A stretch of 45,337 nucleotides of DNA from a virus (lineage: Duplodnaviria; Heunggongvirae; Uroviricota; Caudoviricetes): IMG/VR virus record IMGVR_UViG_2721755660_000004; one strand, 5' to 3'. This document shows positions 4,603 through 23,662 of this stretch, piece by piece. Positions within the stretch are counted from its first letter, which is position 1. Each line of letters begins with the position of its first letter. Position numbers and translations under genes: made by a program. The notes below the pieces were generated by a model, which saw only the letters and a list, made by a program, of their open reading frames with translations, did no database searches and was not told the origin of the DNA.

Positions 4603-4974
4603 TTATTGCGCTAATTCTTTTTCGGCAGCAGATTTTGCATATTCACATGCAAAATTCAGAATTTCGCTGCCAAGTGTTTTTGTTTCGTGATTACTGGACA
4701 TATGTAATACCTGTGTTGCATGCAATAAATGATAAACATTTACCGCAAATGAATCAGGCTCCAGACAAATGCCTTCATAATCATCTTGTTGTGAGGTTGT
4801 TTCTGTCATTGCTCCTGAAGTGCATGCGAGCCTGTTTTTGACAATTCTCTTTCCTCTAAACACGATATCGGCAACTTCTATTGCTTTTATAACCTCCGGG
4901 AGAAGATCCGGGTTTGCATAATCAAAGTCATCAACATGGAGAGCAGTTATGTTTTCGAACTTTTTCGTGCGCAA
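4603..4974 (-). CDS. Hypothetical protein (123 aa, TTG start)
   Basis: ORF with a TTG start preceded by GGAG. The start lies 28 nt inside the 3' end of the upstream HTH gene. No family recognised. Confidence 0.55.
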   Translation of the reverse strand: MRTKKFENITALHVDDFDYANPDLLPEVIKAIEVADIVFRGKRIVKNRLACTSGAMTETTSQQDDYEGICLEPDSFAVNVYHLLHATQVLHMSSNHETKTLGSEILNFACEYAKSAAEKELAQ

Positions 4975-14101: not shown

Positions 14102-15673
14102 ATGGACACCTCACTTGCTCATGAGAATGCCCGCCTGCGGGCACTGTTGCAGACACAACAGGACACCATCCGCCAGATGGCTGAATACAACCGCCTGCTC
14201 TCACAGCGGGTGGCGGCTTATGCTTCCGAAATCAACCGGCTGAAGGCGCTGGTTGCGAAACTGCAGCGTATGCAGTTCGGTAAAAGCTCAGAAAAACTTC
14301 GTGCAAAAACCGAACGGCAGATACAGGAAGCACAGGAGCGAATCAGCGCACTTCAGGAAGAAATGGCAGAAACGCTGGGTGAGCAATATGACCCGGCACT
14401 GCCATCCCCCCTGCGCCAGTCTTCTGCCCGTAAACCGTTACCGACCTCACTTCCCCGTGAAACCCGGGTTATCCGGCCGGAAGAGGAATGCTGCCCGGCC
14501 TGTGGTGGCGAACTCAGTTCTCTGGGATGTGATGTGTCAGAGCAACTGGAGCTTATCAGCAGCGCCTTTAAGGTTATCGAAGCACAACGTCCGAAACTGG
14601 CCTGTTGCCGGTGCGACCATATCGTGCAGGCACCAGTACCTTCAAAACCCATTGCACGCAGTTATGCCGGAGCGGGGCTTCTGGCCCATGTTGTCACCGG
14701 GAAATATGCAGACCATCTGCCGTTATACCGCCAGTCAGAAATATACCGTCGCCAGGGCGTGGAGCTGAGCCGCGCCACGCTGGGGCGCTGGACAGGTGCC
14801 GTTGCTGAACTGCTGGAGCCGCTGTATGACGTCCTGCGCCAGTATGTGCTGATGCCCGGTAAAGTCCATGCCGATGATATCCCCGTCCCGGTCCAGGAGC
14901 CGGGCAGTGGTAAAACAAGGACTGCCCGGCTGTGGGTCTACGTCCGTGATGACCGTAACGCCGGTTCACAGATGCCTCCGGCGGTCTGGTTCGCGTACAG
15001 CCCGGACCGGAAAGGCGTCCATCCACAGAATCATCTGGCCGGTTACAGCGGTGTGCTTCAGGCCGATGCTTACGGTGGTTACCGGGTGTTATACGAATCC
15101 GGCAGAATAACGGAAGCCGCGTGTATGGCTCATGCCCGGAGAAAAATCCACGATGTGCATGCAAGAGTGCCCACCGACATCACCACGGAAGCCCTGCAGC
15201 GTATCGGTGAACTGTATGCCATAGAGGCAGAAGTCCGGGGATGTACAGCAGAACAGCGTCTGGCGGCAAGAAAAGCCAGAGCTGCGCCACTGATGCAGTC
15301 ACTGTATGACTGGATACAGACTCAGATGAAAACACTGTCGCGTCACTCGGATACGGCAAAAGCGTTCGCATACCTGCTGAAACAGTGGGATGGCCTGAAC
15401 GTGTACTGCAGTAATGGCCAGGTGGAAATCGACAACAACATCGCAGAGAACGCCTTACGGGGAGTGGCCGTAGGCCGGAAAAACTGGCTCTTCGCGGGTT
15501 CCGACAGCGGTGGCGAACATGCGGCGGTGTTGTACTCGCTGATCGGCACATGCCGTCTGAACAATGTGGAACCAGAAAAATGGCTGCGTTACGTCATTGA
15601 GCATATCCAGGACTGGCCGGCAAACCGGGTACGCGATCTGTTGCCCTGGAAAGTTGATCTGACCTCTCAGTAA
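14102..15673 (+). CDS. IS66-family transposase TnpC (orf3; 523 aa)
   Basis: N-terminal leucine-zipper region, CPACGG zinc motif, HLPLYRQ motif, and a DDE core ending ...[25 protein letters not shown]. Confidence 0.92.
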
Positions 15674-15703
15674 ATATCAATACGGTTCTGGCGAGCCGCT
15701 TAC

Positions 15704-15711
15704 GAACAACT
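15704..15711. repeat. Right copy of the 8-bp target-site duplication GAACAACT
   Basis: Matches 12992-12999 exactly. Confidence 0.85.
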
Positions 15712-15932
15712 ACGTAAACAGGCACAGGAAATGTTGCGACAGGCGGAACAACTGGAAAAAAACAGGTGTAACAAAAGATGCCATTCGTAAGGATATGGTG
15801 CCAGCGCTCAGGGAACTGATGCAGGCGAAACACCGCGCACAAAAAGCAGTGGATGAGCTGGTGGATTGTGTGGCAGAGCTGGAAACCAAAGTTGGAAAGT
15901 TTGAAAAACTGGTGCAGGAGGTGCTGCGCTGA
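15704..15932 (+). pseudogene. 3' remainder of the IS-disrupted small coiled-coil ORF. It also changes frame at an A7 run (15756-15762).
   Basis: The restored frame stops after 33 codons. The +1 frame then reads ...GVTKDAIRKDMVPALRELMQAKHRAQKAVDELVDCVAELETKVGKFEKLVQEVLR, with its stop overlapping the rusA ATG (TGATG). Confidence 0.5.
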
Positions 15933-16291
15933 TGCGCCATGAGTTTATTTTACCTTATCCGCCGACGGTAAATACTTACTGGCGACGTCGTGGCAACACA
16001 TATTTTGTATCAAAAGTCGATGAGCGTTATCGCCGTGATGTGGCGCTAATTGTTCGCCAGCAGCGGTTGAAATTAAACCTGTCCGGAAGGCTGGCGATAA
16101 AGATTATTGCAGAGCCACCGGATAAGCGCCGTCGTGACCTGGACAATATCCTGAAAGCACCACTGGATGCACTGACACATGCGGGATTGCTTATCGACGA
16201 CGAGCAGTTTGATGAAATCAATATTGTGCGCGGTCAGCTCGTTCCTGGTGGGCGGCTGGGCGTGAAGATTTACAAAATTGAAAGTGAGTGA
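15932..16291 (+). CDS. rusA: RusA Holliday-junction resolvase (119 aa)
   Basis: RusA hallmarks: PPTVNTYWRRRG..., DLDNILKAPLDALTHAGLLIDDEQ. Confidence 0.92.
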   Translation: MRHEFILPYPPTVNTYWRRRGNTYFVSKVDERYRRDVALIVRQQRLKLNLSGRLAIKIIAEPPDKRRRDLDNILKAPLDALTHAGLLIDDEQFDEINIVRGQLVPGGRLGVKIYKIESE

Positions 16292-16836
16292 GCGTAAATA
16301 TGATATACCCGGAAATTACAGGCAAAAGCGGTGAGCATTTACGCCTGAAAACTCTGGAAAGTGTCTGGCTCCAGGGGAAACTGCGTATGTGGGGGCGTTG
16401 GTCGTATATAGGTGGTGGCAAAACAGGAAATATGTTCAATCAGTTGCTGGCATCCAAAAAACTGACAAAAACCGCGATCAATGAAGCCATGCGCAAAATC
16501 AGGGAATCAGGGATTGATAAACCTGAACTGGAAGCATTCTTGCGTGAGATGATCGAAGGAAAGCAAAAAAGCTGGTTAACTCACTGCACTGATGCAGAGG
16601 CACTAAAAATTGATAGTGTTATAGGTGAAGTTCTGGCGGATCATCCAGGACTACTAAATGTCCTGAGTCAGCGTTATGTGGGGCGAGGGATGAGTAAGAG
16701 AAGGATGGCCGAGTTATTAAACGAACAGTACCCAGAGTGGGCGTTGATTACATGCCGACGTCGTGTTGATCAGTGGTTGCGTGTTGCTGAGTTCATTTTG
16801 TACTCACCTATGAGAGAAGCGTTCGATTATACTTAA
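16288..16836 (+). CDS. Putative late-gene antiterminator Q (182 aa). The start is ambiguous: GTG at 16288 or ATG at 16300.
   Basis: Position after rusA and before a promoter plus terminator pair. The LRMWGRW motif resembles the WGxW motif of Q82-type antiterminators. Confidence 0.6.
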   Translation: MSVNMIYPEITGKSGEHLRLKTLESVWLQGKLRMWGRWSYIGGGKTGNMFNQLLASKKLTKTAINEAMRKIRESGIDKPELEAFLREMIEGKQKSWLTHCTDAEALKIDSVIGEVLADHPGLLNVLSQRYVGRGMSKRRMAELLNEQYPEWALITCRRRVDQWLRVAEFILYSPMREAFDYT

Positions 16837-16843
16837 AAAATCA

Positions 16844-16872
16844 TTGCAAAATGAGCCACAAACTGCTTCAAT
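16844..16872 (+). promoter_or_regulatory. Putative late promoter PR'
   Basis: -35 TTGCAA (16844-16849), 17-nt spacer, -10 TTCAAT (16867-16872). It starts 8 nt after the Q stop. Confidence 0.45.
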
Positions 16873-16930
16873 TCCGGTACGCTCCGCATAGCTGTATCGC
16901 GAGGCGAATCAAGCGCATGAACTTTGATAC

Positions 16931-16955
16931 AACCCGCCATTGAGCGGGTTTTTTA
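16931..16955 (+). terminator. tR'-like intrinsic terminator (AACCCGC-CATTGA-GCGGGTT + T-run)
   Basis: 7-bp stem plus T6, about 75 nt downstream of the putative PR'. This is analogous to lambda 6S RNA/tR'. Confidence 0.65.
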
Positions 16956-17076
16956 TGTCCGAAAAACGGCAGAGAACATAAAACGTGCTGGTGGTTGCGA
17001 ATACTGGTCTTTCGGCTTGTATTTTTGTAAATCGATATATACTTATCTTGTGACCAGTAATGTCAGGGCAATTGAT

Positions 17077-17820
17077 ATGAATGAAGCCTGTTCTGTTGTT
17101 TTTGTTCATTCCCCGTTTGTTGTGCTCTTTGAAGGAAAAGAGCTCTCTCTTGAAAGTGGTAGTGCACTTCTTGTCAGGGGGGGAGCTGGATCGTTATTGC
17201 CCTTTTCGGAATGTTTTCGGCGAATAAGTCTCAGTGAATCGACAATTAGCCGTTACCTGTTGTGTGGAGACGAAAAACAGGATGTAGTTTTAGTCCGGCA
17301 AATACCACGATATCTTTGCGTGAGTTTTCCCAAGGCAGAATTGATGGGCATCCTGATTGATTATCTTTGTGAGGAAAAGATTCATACGGACAATTTAGCG
17401 GAAATGCTTTCCTTTTCGTGTCTGGCGTTTTTCTCATCAGAGAAAATGTTTTCGTCGTTTCTGACCGCGTGTATTAGCAATATTAGTGACAGGCTTAGTG
17501 CATTGTTTCGCACGGACATTGCAGCAAACTGGACTCTGAGAGATGTGTCTTCGCGGTTATGTATCAGTGAAAGTTTGTTAAAAAAAAGACTGAAAGAAGA
17601 AGGCACCTGTTTCAGTGAGTTGTTGCTTACAGAGAGAATGAGAATGGCAGCAATGCTGTTGAATCAATCTCGTTGCGCCATCAACAGAATCGCTGCCCAG
17701 TGCGGCTATAATTTTACATCTTATTTTATCAGCGTATTCAGGAGTTATTTTGGTGTTACACCGGCAGGTTACAGGATGGCTGCATTCAATGAGATGAGTT
17801 TAAGTGTTACTCAAGAATAA
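17077..17820 (+). CDS. AraC/XylS-family transcriptional regulator (247 aa from MNEACSV)
   Basis: C-terminal dual-HTH AraC signature (WTLRDVSSRLCISESLLKKRLKEEGTCFSELL...INRIAAQCGYNFTSYFISVFRSYFGVTPAGYR). The track's upstream extension crosses the tR' hairpin. Confidence 0.85.
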   Translation: MNEACSVVFVHSPFVVLFEGKELSLESGSALLVRGGAGSLLPFSECFRRISLSESTISRYLLCGDEKQDVVLVRQIPRYLCVSFPKAELMGILIDYLCEEKIHTDNLAEMLSFSCLAFFSSEKMFSSFLTACISNISDRLSALFRTDIAANWTLRDVSSRLCISESLLKKRLKEEGTCFSELLLTERMRMAAMLLNQSRCAINRIAAQCGYNFTSYFISVFRSYFGVTPAGYRMAAFNEMSLSVTQE

Positions 17821-17844
17821 TTGAATTTTGCACTCATTGAAAAC

Positions 17845-17869
17845 AGGCTCGCTGCGGCGGGCCTTTTTC
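17845..17869 (+). terminator. Intrinsic terminator after the AraC-family gene
   Basis: AGGCTCGC-TGCG-GCGGGCCT (one G.U pair) followed by TTTTT. Confidence 0.6.
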
Positions 17870-18786: not shown

Positions 18787-18809
18787 GCCCCTCTCCTGAG
18801 GGGCTTTTT
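18787..18809 (+). terminator. Intrinsic terminator (GCCCCTC-TCCT-GAGGGGC + T5)
   Basis: Perfect 7-bp GC-rich stem plus T-run. Confidence 0.65.
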
Positions 18810-18853
18810 ATATAAACAGGTTCTACAGATTCTATCAGACATGCGTAAACTTA

Positions 18854-19189
18854 TTATGGCCTGTGTCGTTTTAGTCCGTAGGGGCATATTTGCAGAATGC
18901 AACGGTTATTAAAGCATTCATTAAATACGTTATCTGAATTTGCAGGGCATTCCTGGCTGTTTTTGATTAAATCCCAGAATCTTTTATTGAATGGTACAAC
19001 GTTGTAAATGGTTACAGGTAGCACTTTGTTATTGAGTACGATACCTGTGTGAGTCAGCGTAAATATACTTTCAGGAGGTAAGAAAACATCCGATTGATAC
19101 CAGATTATTAATTTTATTTTACTCCATATGGCTGAAAAAGATATTCCACATGATGGCTGGATAACTGTATCAATCACAATCCACTTCAT
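18854..19189 (-). CDS. Hypothetical protein (111 aa) with a Cys-rich C-terminus, in a very AT-rich region
   Basis: AAGGA SD 6 nt upstream of the ATG. Orientation is opposite to the late operon. No family recognised. Confidence 0.6.
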
Positions 19190-19450
19190 TTAGTTTCCTT
19201 ATTTATGCCTTGCTGGTGATGTTCTGAAAAGTATAAATGATAATTTTGAATGTAAACCATAGAGCAGAACTGTTTTTCTGATTTTGTTTATTGTTTATTT
19301 AAAATGCAGGGTGGTTTATATCTCGTCTTGTAGTTTATCCATGCATATCTGCTTTATGATGAGGTTTTATTTAAGGTATGGTTTTGTGTTTTTTTCTGTA
19401 TTGCATGTCAGGTATTTTAAAGAATTATTTTTTAGATGGTGGAAAGAACC

Positions 19451-19786
19451 ATGGCATTTAAACACTATGATGTTGTCAGGGCGGCGTCGCCGTCAGATCT
19501 TGCGGAAAAGCTGACACACAAACTGAAAGAGGGCTGGCAGCCATACGGCGGACCGGTTGCCATTACGCCGTACACACTGATGCGGGCGGTGGCTATTGAA
19601 GGAGAGCCACAGGTCGGCCCTTCATCTGAGCCGGACTGGTTCTACGTGGTTGTGCTTACCGGACAGTCCAACAGCATGGCCTACGGTGAAGGGCTTCCGT
19701 TACCGGATTCTTACGATGCTCCGGATCCGCGCATTAAACAGCTGGCGCGCCGCAGCACGGTAACTGGCATTTTTAGCAGAGCCTGA
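19451..19786 (+). pseudogene. Truncated nanS-p-like gene: DUF1737 N-terminal domain plus the start of a sialate O-acetylesterase domain (111 aa remnant)
   Basis: MAFKHYDVVRAASPSDLAEKLTHKLKEGWQPYG (DUF1737-type) and LTGQSNSMAYG (GQSN esterase motif). It then terminates early after ...RRSTVT; full-length homologues are remembered as about 600 aa. Confidence 0.7.
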
Positions 19787-19813
19787 ATGCCATAATCACG
19801 GCTCCCGGAGTTG

Positions 19814-19850
19814 GCCGTCAGTGGGTGACACGGGCGGCTTTTTGTTTTTC
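19814..19850 (+). terminator. Imperfect hairpin plus T-rich tract upstream of the holin gene
   Basis: GCCGTCA-GTGGG-TGAcacgggCGGC followed by TTTTTGTTTTT. The structure is irregular. Confidence 0.35.
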
Positions 19851-19893
19851 TTTACTTTCATTTTCTGTCGGCGGGGACGGAGACATACATCAT

Positions 19894-20100
19894 ATGGAAA
19901 AAATTACAACAGGTGTGTCATACACCACGTCAGCGGTGGGGACGGGATACTGGTTACTGCAGCTGCTGGACAGGGTTTCCCCGTCTCAGTGGGCGGCAAT
20001 AGGCGTGCTGGGGAGTCTGCTGTTTGGTCTGCTGACGTACCTGACGAACCTGTATTTCAAAATTAAAGAAGACCGGCGTAAGGCGGCGCGGGGAGAGTAG
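19894..20100 (+). CDS. S: Phage-21-type class II holin (pinholin S21-like, 68 aa)
   Basis: [68 protein letters not shown] is near-collinear with the remembered S21 sequence. Confidence 0.9.
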
Positions 20101-20103
20101 ACG

Positions 20104-20745
20104 ATGAACCATGAAGAAATGAATCAGCGCATAAGTTGCCTGGAAAATGAAATCACTGAACTGAATAAAAAACTGTCGGTGCTGATGGTTTCTGAAGATG
20201 AAAAAAAACGCCGCGATGAGCAGGAAGCAGCGTTTTACGATGATTGCATCAAAATTGCTCGCAGGACCTTTGCGAAGATTTTGCAGGAAAAGTTTTTACC
20301 GACCGCATTGTCAGAAAAGCACTCCATTACAGTTAAAAGTGCCGGAGAGGAAGGCAATAAACGTTATTTTATTGCGTCTGCACCGGATAAAGACCAGGAA
20401 TGGGGGGGGAATCGGCCATCTTTTATTGTGACAAGCGATGACTGGAATATCACGATCCGTGAAGATGGAAAAGTAACACCAGCATCGCACCAGCACAGTG
20501 AGGCGCTCATTGAATTTGCCATTGATTACCTGAAGAACAATAAAAAGCAGGGACTAATGAAGCGCATTGGTCGTTGCATGGGATATCTGCAGGTAGCTGC
20601 TGAGATTGAAGCGCTGGCCAGTGGTGCGGACAAGGATGCAGTTGTGCGGGAGGCTCTTCTTCGTGATTTTGATAATCCACCCTTTAAAAAAGTGCCGGCT
20701 TACTGGTTTCATCCAGGACTGACTTATCTTAAAGGACGTATATAA
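20104..20745 (+). CDS. Hypothetical protein (213 aa) with an N-terminal coiled coil, inserted between holin and endolysin
   Basis: The ATG lies 4 nt after the holin stop, with a GGAGAG SD. No family recognised. Confidence 0.7.
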   Translation: MNHEEMNQRISCLENEITELNKKLSVLMVSEDEKKRRDEQEAAFYDDCIKIARRTFAKILQEKFLPTALSEKHSITVKSAGEEGNKRYFIASAPDKDQEWGGNRPSFIVTSDDWNITIREDGKVTPASHQHSEALIEFAIDYLKNNKKQGLMKRIGRCMGYLQVAAEIEALASGADKDAVVREALLRDFDNPPFKKVPAYWFHPGLTYLKGRI

Positions 20746-20754
20746 GCTGGCTCG

Positions 20755-21069
20755 TTATCTGTTGCCGGATAATCGACGGAAGATGCGTTCTTTTTGTGAT
20801 TTGGCGTAATGATGATCCCACTCACATTCAAGGTAGTTTAATTCTTCGTTTAACCAGTCATTTATATTGTCTTTCAGACGTAGAAGCATGGCTGGTGTTA
20901 ATATTCTGGACATAATGTCGAGAGTTGGTGGTGTGAGGTGTCCATACGGTTCAGCCTGAATGGATTTTACTGCTTCGTGGTTTTGCTGAATGAGTTTAAG
21001 GAATGCTGATTTAAATTGTTCATTCATGGCCTGCATGCAGGCGGTATATTTATGTTCATCGTTATACAT
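20755..21069 (-). CDS. Hypothetical protein (104 aa from MYNDEHKY), convergent with the 213-aa ORF
   Basis: GAGGAT SD 8 nt upstream of the internal ATG at 21069. Its stop lies 10 bp from the stop of the plus-strand ORF. Confidence 0.6.
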   Translation of the reverse strand: MYNDEHKYTACMQAMNEQFKSAFLKLIQQNHEAVKSIQAEPYGHLTPPTLDIMSRILTPAMLLRLKDNINDWLNEELNYLECEWDHHYAKSQKERIFRRLSGNR

Positions 21070-21197
21070 TGCTAAATCCTCGACGGGAATTGTCAGATAT
21101 ATTTCAGCCATCAGGTAAAACACCAGTGCCCACCACTGGCGGGCTGAAGACTTAACATATCCAGGGATTCGGAACCGATAAATCCTGATAAATATCC

Positions 21198-21731
21198 ATG
21201 AACACCAAAATCAAATACGGTCTGTCGGCTGCCGTTCTGGCGCTGATTGCCGCAGGTGCGCCTGCGCCTGAAATCCTCGACCAGTTTCTGGATGAAAAGG
21301 AAGGTAACCACACAACGGCATACCGCGATGGTTCCGGCATCTGGACCATCTGTCGGGGTGCCACGATGGTGGATGGAAAACCCGTTTTTCCCGGTATGAA
21401 ACTGTCGAAGGAAAAATGCGACCAGGTCAACGCCATTGAGCGTGATAAGGCGCTGGCATGGGTGGAGCGCAATATTAAAGTACCACTGACCGAACCACAA
21501 AAAGCGGGTATCGCGTCATTTTGTCCCTATAACATTGGCCCCGGTAAGTGTTTTCCATCGACGTTTTATAAGCGGCTGAATGCTGGTGATCGTAAAGGTG
21601 CATGCGAGGCGATTCGCTGGTGGATAAAAGATGGTGGGCGCGATTGCCGCATACGTTCAAATAACTGCTATGGACAGGTTATTCGTCGTGACCAGGAAAG
21701 CGCATTAGCCTGTTGGGGGATAGATCAGTGA
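21198..21731 (+). CDS. R: SAR endolysin (R21-like lysozyme, GH24; 177 aa)
   Basis: N-terminal signal-anchor-release helix ([14 protein letters not shown]). The catalytic E...D...T region is [20 protein letters not shown]. Confidence 0.9.
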
Positions 21732-22195
21732 GCAGAGTCGCCGCGATTATTTATGCTCTGGTTATCTGCATCATCGTCTGCCTGTCGTGGGCGGTCAATC
21801 ATTACCGTGATAACGCCATCGCCTACAAAGAACAGCGTGATAAAAAAGTCAGTGAGCTGAAGCAGGCGATCGCCACCATCGCTGACATGCAGCAGCGTCA
21901 GCGTGATGTTGCTGCTCTCGATGCAAAGTACTCGAGAGAATTAGCCAATGCGAAAGCTGAAAATGAAACTCTGCGCGCTGATGTTGCCGCTGGTCGTAAG
22001 CGCCTGCGGGTCAATGCCAGTTGCTCCGCAGCCGTGCGTGAAGCCACCGGACCCACCAGCGTGGATAATGCAACCAGCCCCCGACTGGCAGACACCGCTG
22101 AACGGGATTATTTCACCCTCAGAGAACGGTTGATGACGATGCAGAAGCAACTGGAAGGGGCGCAGGAATATATTCGCACCCAGTGCATTAAGTAG
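21728..22195 (+). CDS. Rz: i-spanin Rz (155 aa from the GTG at 21728)
   Basis: Near-collinear with lambda Rz ([30 protein letters not shown]...[19 protein letters not shown]). The GTG overlaps the endolysin stop. Confidence 0.9.
21948..22133 (+). CDS. Rz1: o-spanin Rz1 lipoprotein (61 aa), embedded in Rz in the +1 frame
   Basis: Lipobox LVVSAC. The Pro-rich mature part is nearly identical to lambda Rz1 ([30 protein letters not shown]). Confidence 0.9.
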
Positions 22196-22218
22196 CCTTT
22201 TTGTTATCAGGAGAATGT

Positions 22219-22485
22219 ATGAAGAAATTACTGGTAACCGCAAAGCTCTTTAATGGAAGAATCCCGTTCCGGATTTTACAGCGTTGTCGTGTTCTGGCTG
22301 AAGGTACATTCAGTGGTAAATGCACGGAATGTTATTCACGAATATATGAAGTGGATGCCACGGATGAAGATATAACCGTTGAGTGTAATGCCGGGATTGT
22401 ATCGGCCACATTGCTTCATGGGCGAATTGGGTTGTCGCAGGAGGATGCAAATGAATTACCAACTGGCAAAACTTTATCGTGGTAA
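22219..22485 (+). CDS. Hypothetical protein (88 aa from MKKLLVT)
   Basis: AGGAG SD 5 nt upstream. No family recognised. Confidence 0.55.
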   Translation: MKKLLVTAKLFNGRIPFRILQRCRVLAEGTFSGKCTECYSRIYEVDATDEDITVECNAGIVSATLLHGRIGLSQEDANELPTGKTLSW

Positions 22486-22660: not shown

Positions 22661-23011
22661 ATGCCATCACGAATCCCACGCGCCTGCCGTAAGCGTGGAT
22701 GTGCAGGTACAACCACAGACAGTTCTGGTTACTGCGATAAACATCGTGGCGAAGGATGGGTACAGCATCAACGCGGACTGAGCCGCCACCAGCGTGGCTA
22801 TGGCTCGAAATGGGATGCCATACGTGCGCGCATACTGAAGCGTGATAATCATCTGTGTCAGAACTGTCTGCGCAATGGACGAGCCGTTGAGGCCAGGACT
22901 GTAGACCACATTATCCCAAAAGCTCATGGTGGCACTGATGATGATTCCAATCTTGAGTCGTTATGCTGGGAATGCCACAGAGTGAAGACAGCAAGAGAAC
23001 ATATTCGATGA
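22661..23011 (+). CDS. HNH endonuclease (HK97 gp74-like, terminase-associated; 116 aa)
   Basis: HNH core DHIIPKAHGGTDDDSNLESLCWECHRVKT, plus an N-terminal Cys cluster. Confidence 0.9.
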   Translation: MPSRIPRACRKRGCAGTTTDSSGYCDKHRGEGWVQHQRGLSRHQRGYGSKWDAIRARILKRDNHLCQNCLRNGRAVEARTVDHIIPKAHGGTDDDSNLESLCWECHRVKTAREHIR

Positions 23012-23146: not shown

Positions 23147-23662
23147 CTACTGGAGGGTTGTTTGAATTAGTCGAAGTGCGTTCGGCAGATTCAGAGCCCC
23201 CTGAGTCAGTAACTGTAGGGTCAAATGTTTTATGGCGTCTCCCGGAAGCTCTCGGAGTTTTGAAATCAATCCCTTCTTCTGATCTTCAGGTATATTTGCA
23301 ACACGGATTATATCCTCAAGGGCAACAATCGTGTCATTGTGTAACCGAACGGTTTGAACTTTAAGGATCGCACTTAAGCCGCCATCATCAAGAAGAAAAT
23401 CAATTCCTTTCTCTGTAATGTTGCAGTACGGGGCATTGAAGATAAAATCAACGCCATCCATGGTATCGCTGCGTACGAAGGGTGTAGAAACGAGACCATG
23501 CATTTCAAGGTATAACATGCACGCCACAAAGTGATCATAGCTGTCAAATTTCTCAATAAGGTCTTGTTCCTGTGCCTTGTTTAAAGAGTTAGGAGCACAA
23601 TCTATAAGGGCGTTGAGGATTTCAAGTTGTAAGGTTCTGTCATATTTTCTGGTTTTATCCAT
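23147..23662 (-). CDS. Winged-helix (DUF2513/YjcQ-like) protein with an extra C-terminal helical domain (171 aa)
   Basis: The pattern LQLEILNALID...HFVACMLYLEMHGLV...ITEKGIDFLLDDGG resembles DUF2513. GGAG SD 8 nt upstream. Orientation is opposite to the flanking genes. Confidence 0.7.
   Translation of the reverse strand: MDKTRKYDRTLQLEILNALIDCAPNSLNKAQEQDLIEKFDSYDHFVACMLYLEMHGLVSTPFVRSDTMDGVDFIFNAPYCNITEKGIDFLLDDGGLSAILKVQTVRLHNDTIVALEDIIRVANIPEDQKKGLISKLRELPGDAIKHLTLQLLTQGALNLPNALRLIQTTLQ

Follow-up and report, generated by a model that had tools for sequence, protein, structure and literature searches.

A two-gene segment between the holin and endolysin genes of an Escherichia coli lambdoid prophage as the probable cargo of a recurrent variable slot

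The lysis cassette of the Qin prophage of Escherichia coli K-12 has the gene order essQ-ydfR-rrrQ, with the start of ydfR (b1555) located 4 nt past the holin stop. It is the K-12 precedent for the segment considered here, which occupies positions 20104-21197 of a 45,337-nt caudovirus sequence (IMG/VR record IMGVR_UViG_2721755660_000004; hereinafter the window, i.e., the whole stretch of DNA that was analysed) and lies between the holin gene S and the endolysin gene R of an E. coli lambdoid prophage. It holds two open reading frames (ORFs), ORF213 on the plus strand and the convergent ORF104 on the minus strand. Two-hybrid and co-purification experiments showed that K-12 YdfR binds RNase E through the latter's catalytic half (residues 1-597) and that RNA is brought down with it; the RNase E-interacting region was mapped to YdfR residues 1-72 (PMC13232886). 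Our literature search found functional data on YdfR in that report alone and nothing on the S-R slot, ORF104 or ORF213. ORF213 shares with ydfR the place directly after a class II holin gene, the 4-nt start and the position upstream of a lysozyme gene. However, K-12 YdfR consists essentially of DUF1327 only and has none of the modules of ORF213, which in turn is without the module formed by YdfR residues 1-72; moreover, the K-12 slot has no minus-strand gene. Judged by alignment, ORF213 is a YdfR-family relative without DUF1327.

Closer counterparts are found in Shiga toxin (Stx) phages. The Stx2_12E129 Stx2a phages have a 213-aa plus-strand and a 104-aa minus-strand gene between S and R, with 85% DNA identity over the full insert. 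Stx2 phage 86 (NC_008464) has the same two-gene layout in gp05/gp06, and its 104-aa gene is 68% identical to ORF104 at the amino acid level, but its gp05 is a 268-aa form fused to DUF1327. All these counterparts are annotated as hypothetical. Thus, the arrangement is already public, both in these phages and in about 94 complete genomes. The S-R cargo does not constitute a new class of lysis system or of toxin-antitoxin system, nor is a new mechanism demonstrated for it.

We consider it fairly probable that the 1.1-kb segment now fills, as cargo, a recurrent variable slot of Escherichia lambdoid prophages, and that it is made up of a late accessory gene and a separable moron-like gene. The features on which this reading draws are the following:

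19894-20100, plus strand: class II (S21-type) holin (Pfam PF04971 'phage P21 holin S', E 3.5e-33)
20104-20745, plus strand: ORF213, 213 aa, between holin and lysozyme (PHROG 1085)
20755-21069, minus strand: ORF104, 104 aa, convergent to ORF213 (PHROG 1853)
20768-21177, no strand assigned: segment of about 410 bp absent in relatives that have lost ORF104 (deletion scars in loci L149, L162 and L173)
21076-21081, minus strand: Shine-Dalgarno sequence GAGGAT of ORF104, 6 nt 5' of its ATG, read from the sequence
21120-21197, plus strand: backbone leader of R, common to phages with differing cargo
21121-21144, minus strand: hairpin CGCCAGTG-GTGGG-CACTGGTG followed by TTTT, a terminator-like match about 50 nt upstream of the ORF104 start
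21198-21731, plus strand: signal-arrest-release (SAR)-type phage lysozyme R (PF00959, E 1.4e-24; PHROG 7 endolysin), with an Ala/Gly-rich, SAR-like N-terminus

The initial annotation, made from the sequence alone, had described an S21-like pinholin and a SAR endolysin about 1.1 kb apart, and its coordinates are correct, the gap from S to R being 1,097 nt. It had also noted an ORF213 start codon just after the holin stop with its own Shine-Dalgarno sequence, a convergent 104-aa frame preceded by GAGGAT, closely spaced stops and an AT-richer insert, all of which we could confirm. GGGGAGAG is located at 20090-20097 in the 3' end of the holin gene, the first base of the ORF213 ATG is the 4th nt past the holin TAG, and the stop codons of ORF213 and ORF104 have 9 nt between them. 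GC content is 0.445 in ORF213, 0.397 in ORF104 and 0.436 in the whole insert, as compared to 0.546, 0.517 and 0.538 in the holin, R and Rz genes, respectively; at third codon positions (GC3) it is 0.40-0.43 in the insert genes versus 0.51-0.65 in the flanking genes.

The assumption that S, R and Rz are normally contiguous, on which the segment had been read as splitting the cassette, does not hold for the relatives of this prophage. Viral contigs were collected with the holin, ORF213 or ORF104 as anchor, and the content of the S-R gap was listed for each. Among the 68 holin-anchored loci with both S and R (holins 97-99% identical), 17 have contiguous cassettes with R starting 1-4 nt past the holin stop, and in 51 the gap is filled, in most cases by genes of the DUF1327/YdfR type; the middle and C-terminal modules of ORF213 are present in 19 of the 68 loci and ORF104 in two. 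The S-R insert is, therefore, not an unusual disruption of the lysis cassette. The left edge of the slot is constant: a junction of the form GGGGAGAGTAx-nnn(n)-ATG precedes R, ydfR or the ORF213-type gene in all compared loci, and since it is identical in every class, whichever gene follows the holin inherits the ribosome-binding site in its 3' end. At the right edge, 21120-21197 (positions 1020-1097 of the query) matches many E. coli genomes as well as Stx1, Stx2 and H-19B phages with other cargo or none. Because this stretch, the final ~75 nt ahead of R, recurs in phages whose cargo differs widely, it is best regarded as backbone rather than the insert proper. In other loci the position of ORF104 is used by at least five unrelated small minus-strand genes:

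L091:~4650-4880 and 12 similar loci, minus strand: 90-aa gene (PHROG 2411) adjoining the R leader, with a strong Shine-Dalgarno sequence
L004:3405-3692, minus strand: 95-aa gene (PHROG 10490) adjoining the R leader, with a strong Shine-Dalgarno sequence
L002:2599-2859, minus strand: 86-aa gene (PHROG 2572) adjoining the R leader, with a strong Shine-Dalgarno sequence
Other loci, minus strand: a 70-aa gene (PHROG 18136) and a 210-aa gene

ORF104 was directly compared with two of them, the 86-aa and 95-aa genes, and has no sequence similarity to either. The sole functional hint among these genes is a weak partial match of the 95-aa protein to the PADLOC candidate PDC-S51 (E 2.5e-5). A 'DUF1823' label carried by the minus-strand gene of PhiR12_1 was not reproduced by Pfam.

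The initial annotation recognised no family for either protein; both can now be placed in one. ORF213 gives a full-length profile match to PHROG 1085 (E 1.7e-101; labelled 'unknown function') and has 189 homologues, with all named ones among the 120 matches listed coming from E. coli. Proteins of 268-333 aa annotated as 'YdfR family' or 'DUF1327 domain-containing' combine an N-terminal DUF1327 (PF07041) with the three modules of ORF213, which is 58-86% identical to them over the shared modules. ORF213 itself has no match to PF07041 at E<=0.1, and the DUF1327 block is also missing from it in the family alignment; a Pfam scan returned nothing else at that threshold save one weak match far under its cut-off. 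Its modules are the following:

ORF213 residues 1-62: coiled-coil helices
ORF213 residues 63-150: middle module, a small beta-hairpin plus helix core
ORF213 residues 151-213: C-terminal module

These modules separate and fuse freely, as seen in strain FHI_NMBU_10, where an ORF213-type gene adjoins a separate DUF1327 gene, and in PhiR12_1, where DUF1327 is fused to the coiled-coil module only. The N-terminal module additionally occurs in other cargo (PHROGs 36381, 15975 and 2091).

The AlphaFold2 model of ORF213 is poor overall (predicted local distance difference test score, pLDDT, 53.8). It has long helices at residues 3-26 and 31-64, which fit the N-terminal coiled coil of the initial annotation, and a moderate-confidence beta-hairpin plus helix core at about 103-175. 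The best-conserved part of the protein is its last 25 residues, a Pro/Phe/Trp-rich tail with the invariant positions F189, P193, F194, K195, P198, W201, P204, G205, L209, K210 and R212; it has a pLDDT of 28-37 and is predicted to be disordered on its own. This combination of conservation and predicted disorder points to a candidate docking peptide for a partner protein. We posit that the ORF213 product would be a soluble cytoplasmic protein, probably oligomerising, whose conserved tail may dock onto such a partner. As the same body is fused to DUF1327 in other members and K-12 YdfR binds RNase E, the activity of the YdfR family is most likely cytoplasmic and host-directed rather than directed at the envelope, perhaps acting on RNA turnover late in infection.

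Both ORF213 and ORF104 are real genes under purifying selection, a point on which the initial annotation had made its interpretation depend. The ratio of nonsynonymous to synonymous divergence (dN/dS; pairwise Nei-Gojobori estimates with 20-65 synonymous differences per comparison, those for ORF104 from intact alleles) is 0.25-0.49 for ORF213 and 0.19-0.47 for ORF104. With ratios well below 1 and frames that stay intact across alleles down to about 45-65% identity, neither is a chance ORF. The ORF213 family is narrowly distributed: a scan of 185,579 species representatives places it in three only, which belong to an Escherichia sp., Shigella flexneri and E. coli. By DNA match, about 18% of complete E. 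coli genomes have a member of the YdfR family. Its long members have been systematically mis-annotated: in 55989 (L211:1685-2491) and DS566 (L210:2464-3354) the translated YdfR-family ORFs are intact, with 268 aa and 296 aa, respectively, whereas RefSeq, using the Prokaryotic Genome Annotation Pipeline (PGAP), labels both as 'incomplete, missing C-terminus' pseudogenes spanning the DUF1327 part only. Such calls probably account for the hundreds of genomes in which the ORF213-like 3' region is unannotated.

ORF104 gives a full-length profile match to PHROG 1853 (E 1.5e-45; likewise labelled 'unknown function'). Its model, built from seven sequences, is confident (pLDDT 85.6; predicted template modelling score 0.79) and has five helices; the protein is predicted to be a small soluble five-helix member of an orphan family. 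PGAP annotates a 118-aa version, but all family members, distant ones included, begin at the 104-aa methionine, making the latter the better supported start. Relatives are few: an indexed search returned 12 clusters, whose named members are all from E. coli, an exhaustive profile search just 19 among 1.84 billion representative proteins, and a scan of species-representative genomes none. Among 50,697 phage records it is found in three distinct phages, namely Stx2 phage 86 (two accessions) and two Stx2a phages, and among 5,426 complete E. coli genomes in 94, including 55989 and an O104:H4 strain, with at most four copies per genome. The chromosome of GB089 (NZ_CP013663.1) has four copies of ORF104, i.e., several resident lambdoid prophages with the same S-R cargo, and therefore offers ample chance for inter-prophage recombination.

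No toxin, antitoxin or defence domain was found in ORF213 or ORF104 by Pfam, NCBIfam, PADLOC, PDB-sequence or fold searches. For both proteins the Pfam and NCBIfam scans gave nothing significant and the PDB-sequence profile searches nothing below E 0.1. The fold search returned no solved-fold match for ORF104, nor for ORF213, for which the low-confidence model makes the result uninformative. PADLOC-DB 2.0 gave no match at E<=1 for ORF213 or the 104-aa ORF104; a Cas6b match of a 122-aa extended ORF104 (E 0.015) is at chance level.

Classic lambdoid morons, such as bor and lom of lambda, have their own promoter upstream and a terminator downstream. ORF104 resembles them in being small and of low GC content, in its opposite orientation within the late region, in being present or absent in close relatives, and in being dispensable for the lytic functions. 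We propose that it would be a separate, opposite-strand, moron-like gene that is transcribed independently and can be lost or exchanged without being needed by ORF213 or the lysis genes. A stronger version of this view holds that ORF104 by itself is a lysogenic-conversion, defence or anti-defence moron and that the position next to R is a diversity hotspot for small genes of this sort. It can draw on the GC content of 0.40, presence or absence among near-identical prophages, highly diverged alleles beside conserved neighbours, the copy number of up to four per genome, and the unrelated small genes in the same position, one of which has the above-mentioned weak PDC-S51 match. Nevertheless, we regard it as unlikely: ORF104 has no recognisable promoter, it has neither a PADLOC nor a fold match, and its average dN/dS below 0.5 gives no sign of diversifying selection.

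Whether the two genes always travel together has different answers in the two directions. In all 37 ORF104-anchored loci with S and R, ORF104 converges on a gene that has the middle module of ORF213. The C-terminal module is also present in 36 of these, the exception (L047) having a truncated ORF104 of its own, and the linkage spans at least four diverged ORF104 allele classes. The reverse association fails, as 46 of the 76 ORF213-anchored loci have no ORF104 while their ORF213-type genes are intact. Some preserve a clean scar of the loss: L149, L162 and L173 have one identical junction, in which TAAGCTGGCTCGTTATCTGTTGCC is joined to GATAAATCCTGATAAATATCCATG, such that the ORF104 stop and about three codons are kept and abut the final 21 nt ahead of the R start codon. 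The corresponding ~410-bp deletion is bounded by a microhomology between GCCGGATAA (20764-20772) and CCGATAA (21175-21181). The scar is found behind one DUF1327-less gene and one DUF1327-fused gene type, with both ORFs intact. Furthermore, ORF213 modules 90-97% identical to those of the window adjoin an ORF104 allele that is only 47-50% identical; this diverged allele has a synonymous divergence (dS) above 2, as compared to about 0.2-0.3 for the most similar ORF213-type genes compared. By these comparisons, the alleles of ORF213 and ORF104 recombine independently and do not co-diverge. One candidate for an ORF104 stranded beside a dead partner, that of 55989, was rejected, as the pseudogene call on its intact 268-aa partner is a PGAP artefact.

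These observations bear directly on the suggestion of the initial annotation that the genes form a toxin/antidote-like pair, and more generally on the idea of one functional module, in which a separately transcribed ORF104 binds, gates or needs the ORF213 type (toxin/antidote, abortive infection or superinfection exclusion). The strict convergence in 37 of 37 loci, always inside the S-R gap, the close stops, and a disordered conserved tail of ORF213 that could serve as a docking peptide all speak for it. As in type II toxin-antitoxin and abortive-infection systems, two small prophage genes are adjacent, and ORF104 never occurs without the ORF213 type. However, the genes are convergent rather than a co-directional operon, the supposed toxin ORF213 persists, intact and under selection, without its partner, the alleles do not co-diverge, and neither protein has a PADLOC or Pfam match. 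Moreover, unrelated small genes replace ORF104 beside other YdfR-family arrangements. The 46 loci without ORF104, the scars, the independent alleles and the substitute genes argue against an obligate toxin/antidote pair, and we accordingly hold the single-module account to be distinctly unlikely. The relationships among the loci favour a slot in which two genes, one late and on the plus strand, the other small and antisense, are exchanged independently. Even so, ORF104 could have a one-way dependence on the ORF213-type module.

A more speculative proposal, to which we assign a similarly low probability, is that the S-R junction is a diversity hotspot with a fixed layout, a late modular YdfR-family effector followed by an exchangeable antisense gene, in which ORF104 types, expressed in the lysogen, would act on the C-terminal module of the ORF213 type as its partners or gatekeepers. 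If true, it would amount to a hitherto unrecognised two-part system, e.g., for superinfection exclusion or abortive infection armed at the onset of late gene expression, or for pre-lysis control of host RNA decay.

Returning to the variable slot with a late accessory gene and a separable moron-like gene, ORF213 is in a classic late-operon position. It would be translated from the ribosome-binding site in the holin 3' end, on the same antiterminated late transcript as S, R and Rz, in keeping with the co-expression with the holin that the initial annotation had envisaged. Its companion claim, that the minus-strand gene would require separate transcription, is likewise supported. Several points weigh against our interpretation, and they concern both genes as well as the sampling. 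There is no sigma-70 consensus between R and ORF104, nor does one precede the alternative minus-strand genes at four other loci; the terminator-like hairpin lies upstream of ORF104 and not downstream, unlike the classic moron layout. The absence of ORF104 from any other context (0 of the 37 loci), which we have treated as linkage, could mean functional dependence. On the side of ORF213, the idea of an RNase E- or RNA-related role is weak because DUF1327, the sole module with experimental data, is missing from it. Late expression may also be impaired in the window prophage because an IS66-family insertion element (tnpA, tnpB, tnpC; ~15281-17869) lies between the early/regulatory genes and the TerB-DUF3927-IraM-lysis region. 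Finally, the viral-contig samples are redundant and biased to close relatives.

The signals around the divergent R and ORF104 starts were compared across alleles. The GAGGAT Shine-Dalgarno sequence is kept in ORF104 allele types A, B and B', as is the hairpin at 21121-21144, with a G.T to G-C change in its stem; type C has two perfect TATAAT hexamers upstream, neither with a matching -35. The hairpin resembles a terminator or a leader element, and its stem, without the T-run, also occurs in PhiR12_1, which has another minus-strand gene. Folding of the R/ORF104 leader gave weak z-scores (-2.0 and -1.65), that of the hairpin being only about -2, and Rfam gave no match in 19300-22400. In the minimum-free-energy fold of the minus-strand leader (21045-21100 and the hairpin) the ORF104 Shine-Dalgarno sequence (GAGGAUU) pairs with AGUCUUC next to the hairpin. 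This hints that the ORF104 ribosome-binding site may be occluded, the alleles varying too little for covariation. In the window R has an AU-rich leader with no obvious Shine-Dalgarno sequence. Its last ~20 nt (21176-21197, CTGATAAATATCCATGAAC) resemble the 3' end of K-12 ydfR (L005) where it overlaps the rrrQ start (CATAAATATCTATGAAC). This resemblance suggests an origin of the R leader from the terminal part of a ydfR-type gene with which R was formerly coupled in translation.

Such features might be taken to mean that the segment tunes lysis directly, either through an antiholin-like or endolysin-regulating protein or through an S:R ratio altered by 1.1 kb of added sequence and an antisense gene. 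Both genes indeed lie inside the lysis cassette. ORF213 takes the holin-coupled start that R uses in contiguous cassettes, leaving R without a clear Shine-Dalgarno sequence, and any ORF104 mRNA would be antisense to the part of the late transcript that joins ORF213 to R. Nonetheless, pinholin/SAR-endolysin control operates at the membrane and in the periplasm, while both proteins are predicted to be soluble. By hydropathy, neither has a transmembrane segment, SAR or lipoprotein signal of the antiholin or spanin type (the maximal 19-residue Kyte-Doolittle value and the grand average of hydropathy are 0.76 and -0.62 for ORF213, and 0.94 and -0.75 for ORF104). Since neither has a membrane segment, the direct membrane role in lysis timing raised by the initial annotation is unlikely. 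Moreover, the slot is empty or filled with unrelated genes beside the same S and R, and some relatives have lost ORF104 by deletion, together with the hairpin and most of the leader. As these deletion variants keep the R ORF, R is probably independent of the hairpin and most of the leader. Taken as a whole, we consider direct lysis tuning very unlikely. Lastly, that the segment is decaying filler with spurious ORFs or pseudogenes, an impression left by the purely hypothetical annotations, the PGAP pseudogene flags on long YdfR-family relatives, and the IS66 element and truncated nanS-p of the window prophage, is scarcely credible and already largely refuted by frames intact across 45-100% identity, dN/dS well below 1, the confident fold of ORF104, and the intact 268- and 296-aa ORFs behind the supposed pseudogenes.

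The value of these results lies mainly in clarification: in these prophages it is usual, not anomalous, for S and R to have genes between them. Residual interest attaches to the recurrent layout of the slot, the many unrelated genes that fill its antisense position, and the fact that ORF104 is strictly tied to the ORF213 type but not vice versa. The YdfR family is poorly understood, with one module, DUF1327, lately tied to RNase E. A compact, well-bounded slot offers tractable candidates for prophage accessory functions in Shiga toxin-producing and enteroaggregative E. coli, including 55989 and O104:H4. The comparison also shows that RefSeq systematically mislabels long, intact genes of the YdfR family as pseudogenes.

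The lysis region of the window is 100% identical in strains GB089 and OkiPb01715. The annotated order is integrase, repressor, replication genes, IS66, TerB, IraM, truncated nanS-p, lysis genes, terminase, head and tail, and in this prophage the IS66 element may lie between the late promoter and the lysis genes. Further features around the segment are the following:

18854-19189, minus strand: 111-aa gene annotated by PGAP as anti-adapter protein IraM, an opposite-strand accessory gene just upstream of the lysis cassette
19436-19786, plus strand: 116-aa ORF with a DUF1737 domain, annotated as a truncated pseudogene
21728-22195, plus strand: Rz spanin (PF03245, E 1.1e-49), with a probable GTG start overlapping the R stop
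21948-22133, embedded in Rz: Rz1 lipoprotein (ORF list and PGAP annotation)
22661-23011, plus strand: HNH endonuclease gene
23147-23662, minus strand: 171-aa hypothetical gene

The IraM gene lies inside a strongly AT-rich island (33% GC, 18800-19430) and, like the 171-aa gene, is a further opposite-strand frame of the late region. In Stx phages, e.g., phage 86, the nanS-p/SASA esterase gene lies ahead of the holin gene; the DUF1737 ORF is what is left of its N-terminal part. The HNH endonuclease gene and the 171-aa gene are located between Rz and the terminase genes.

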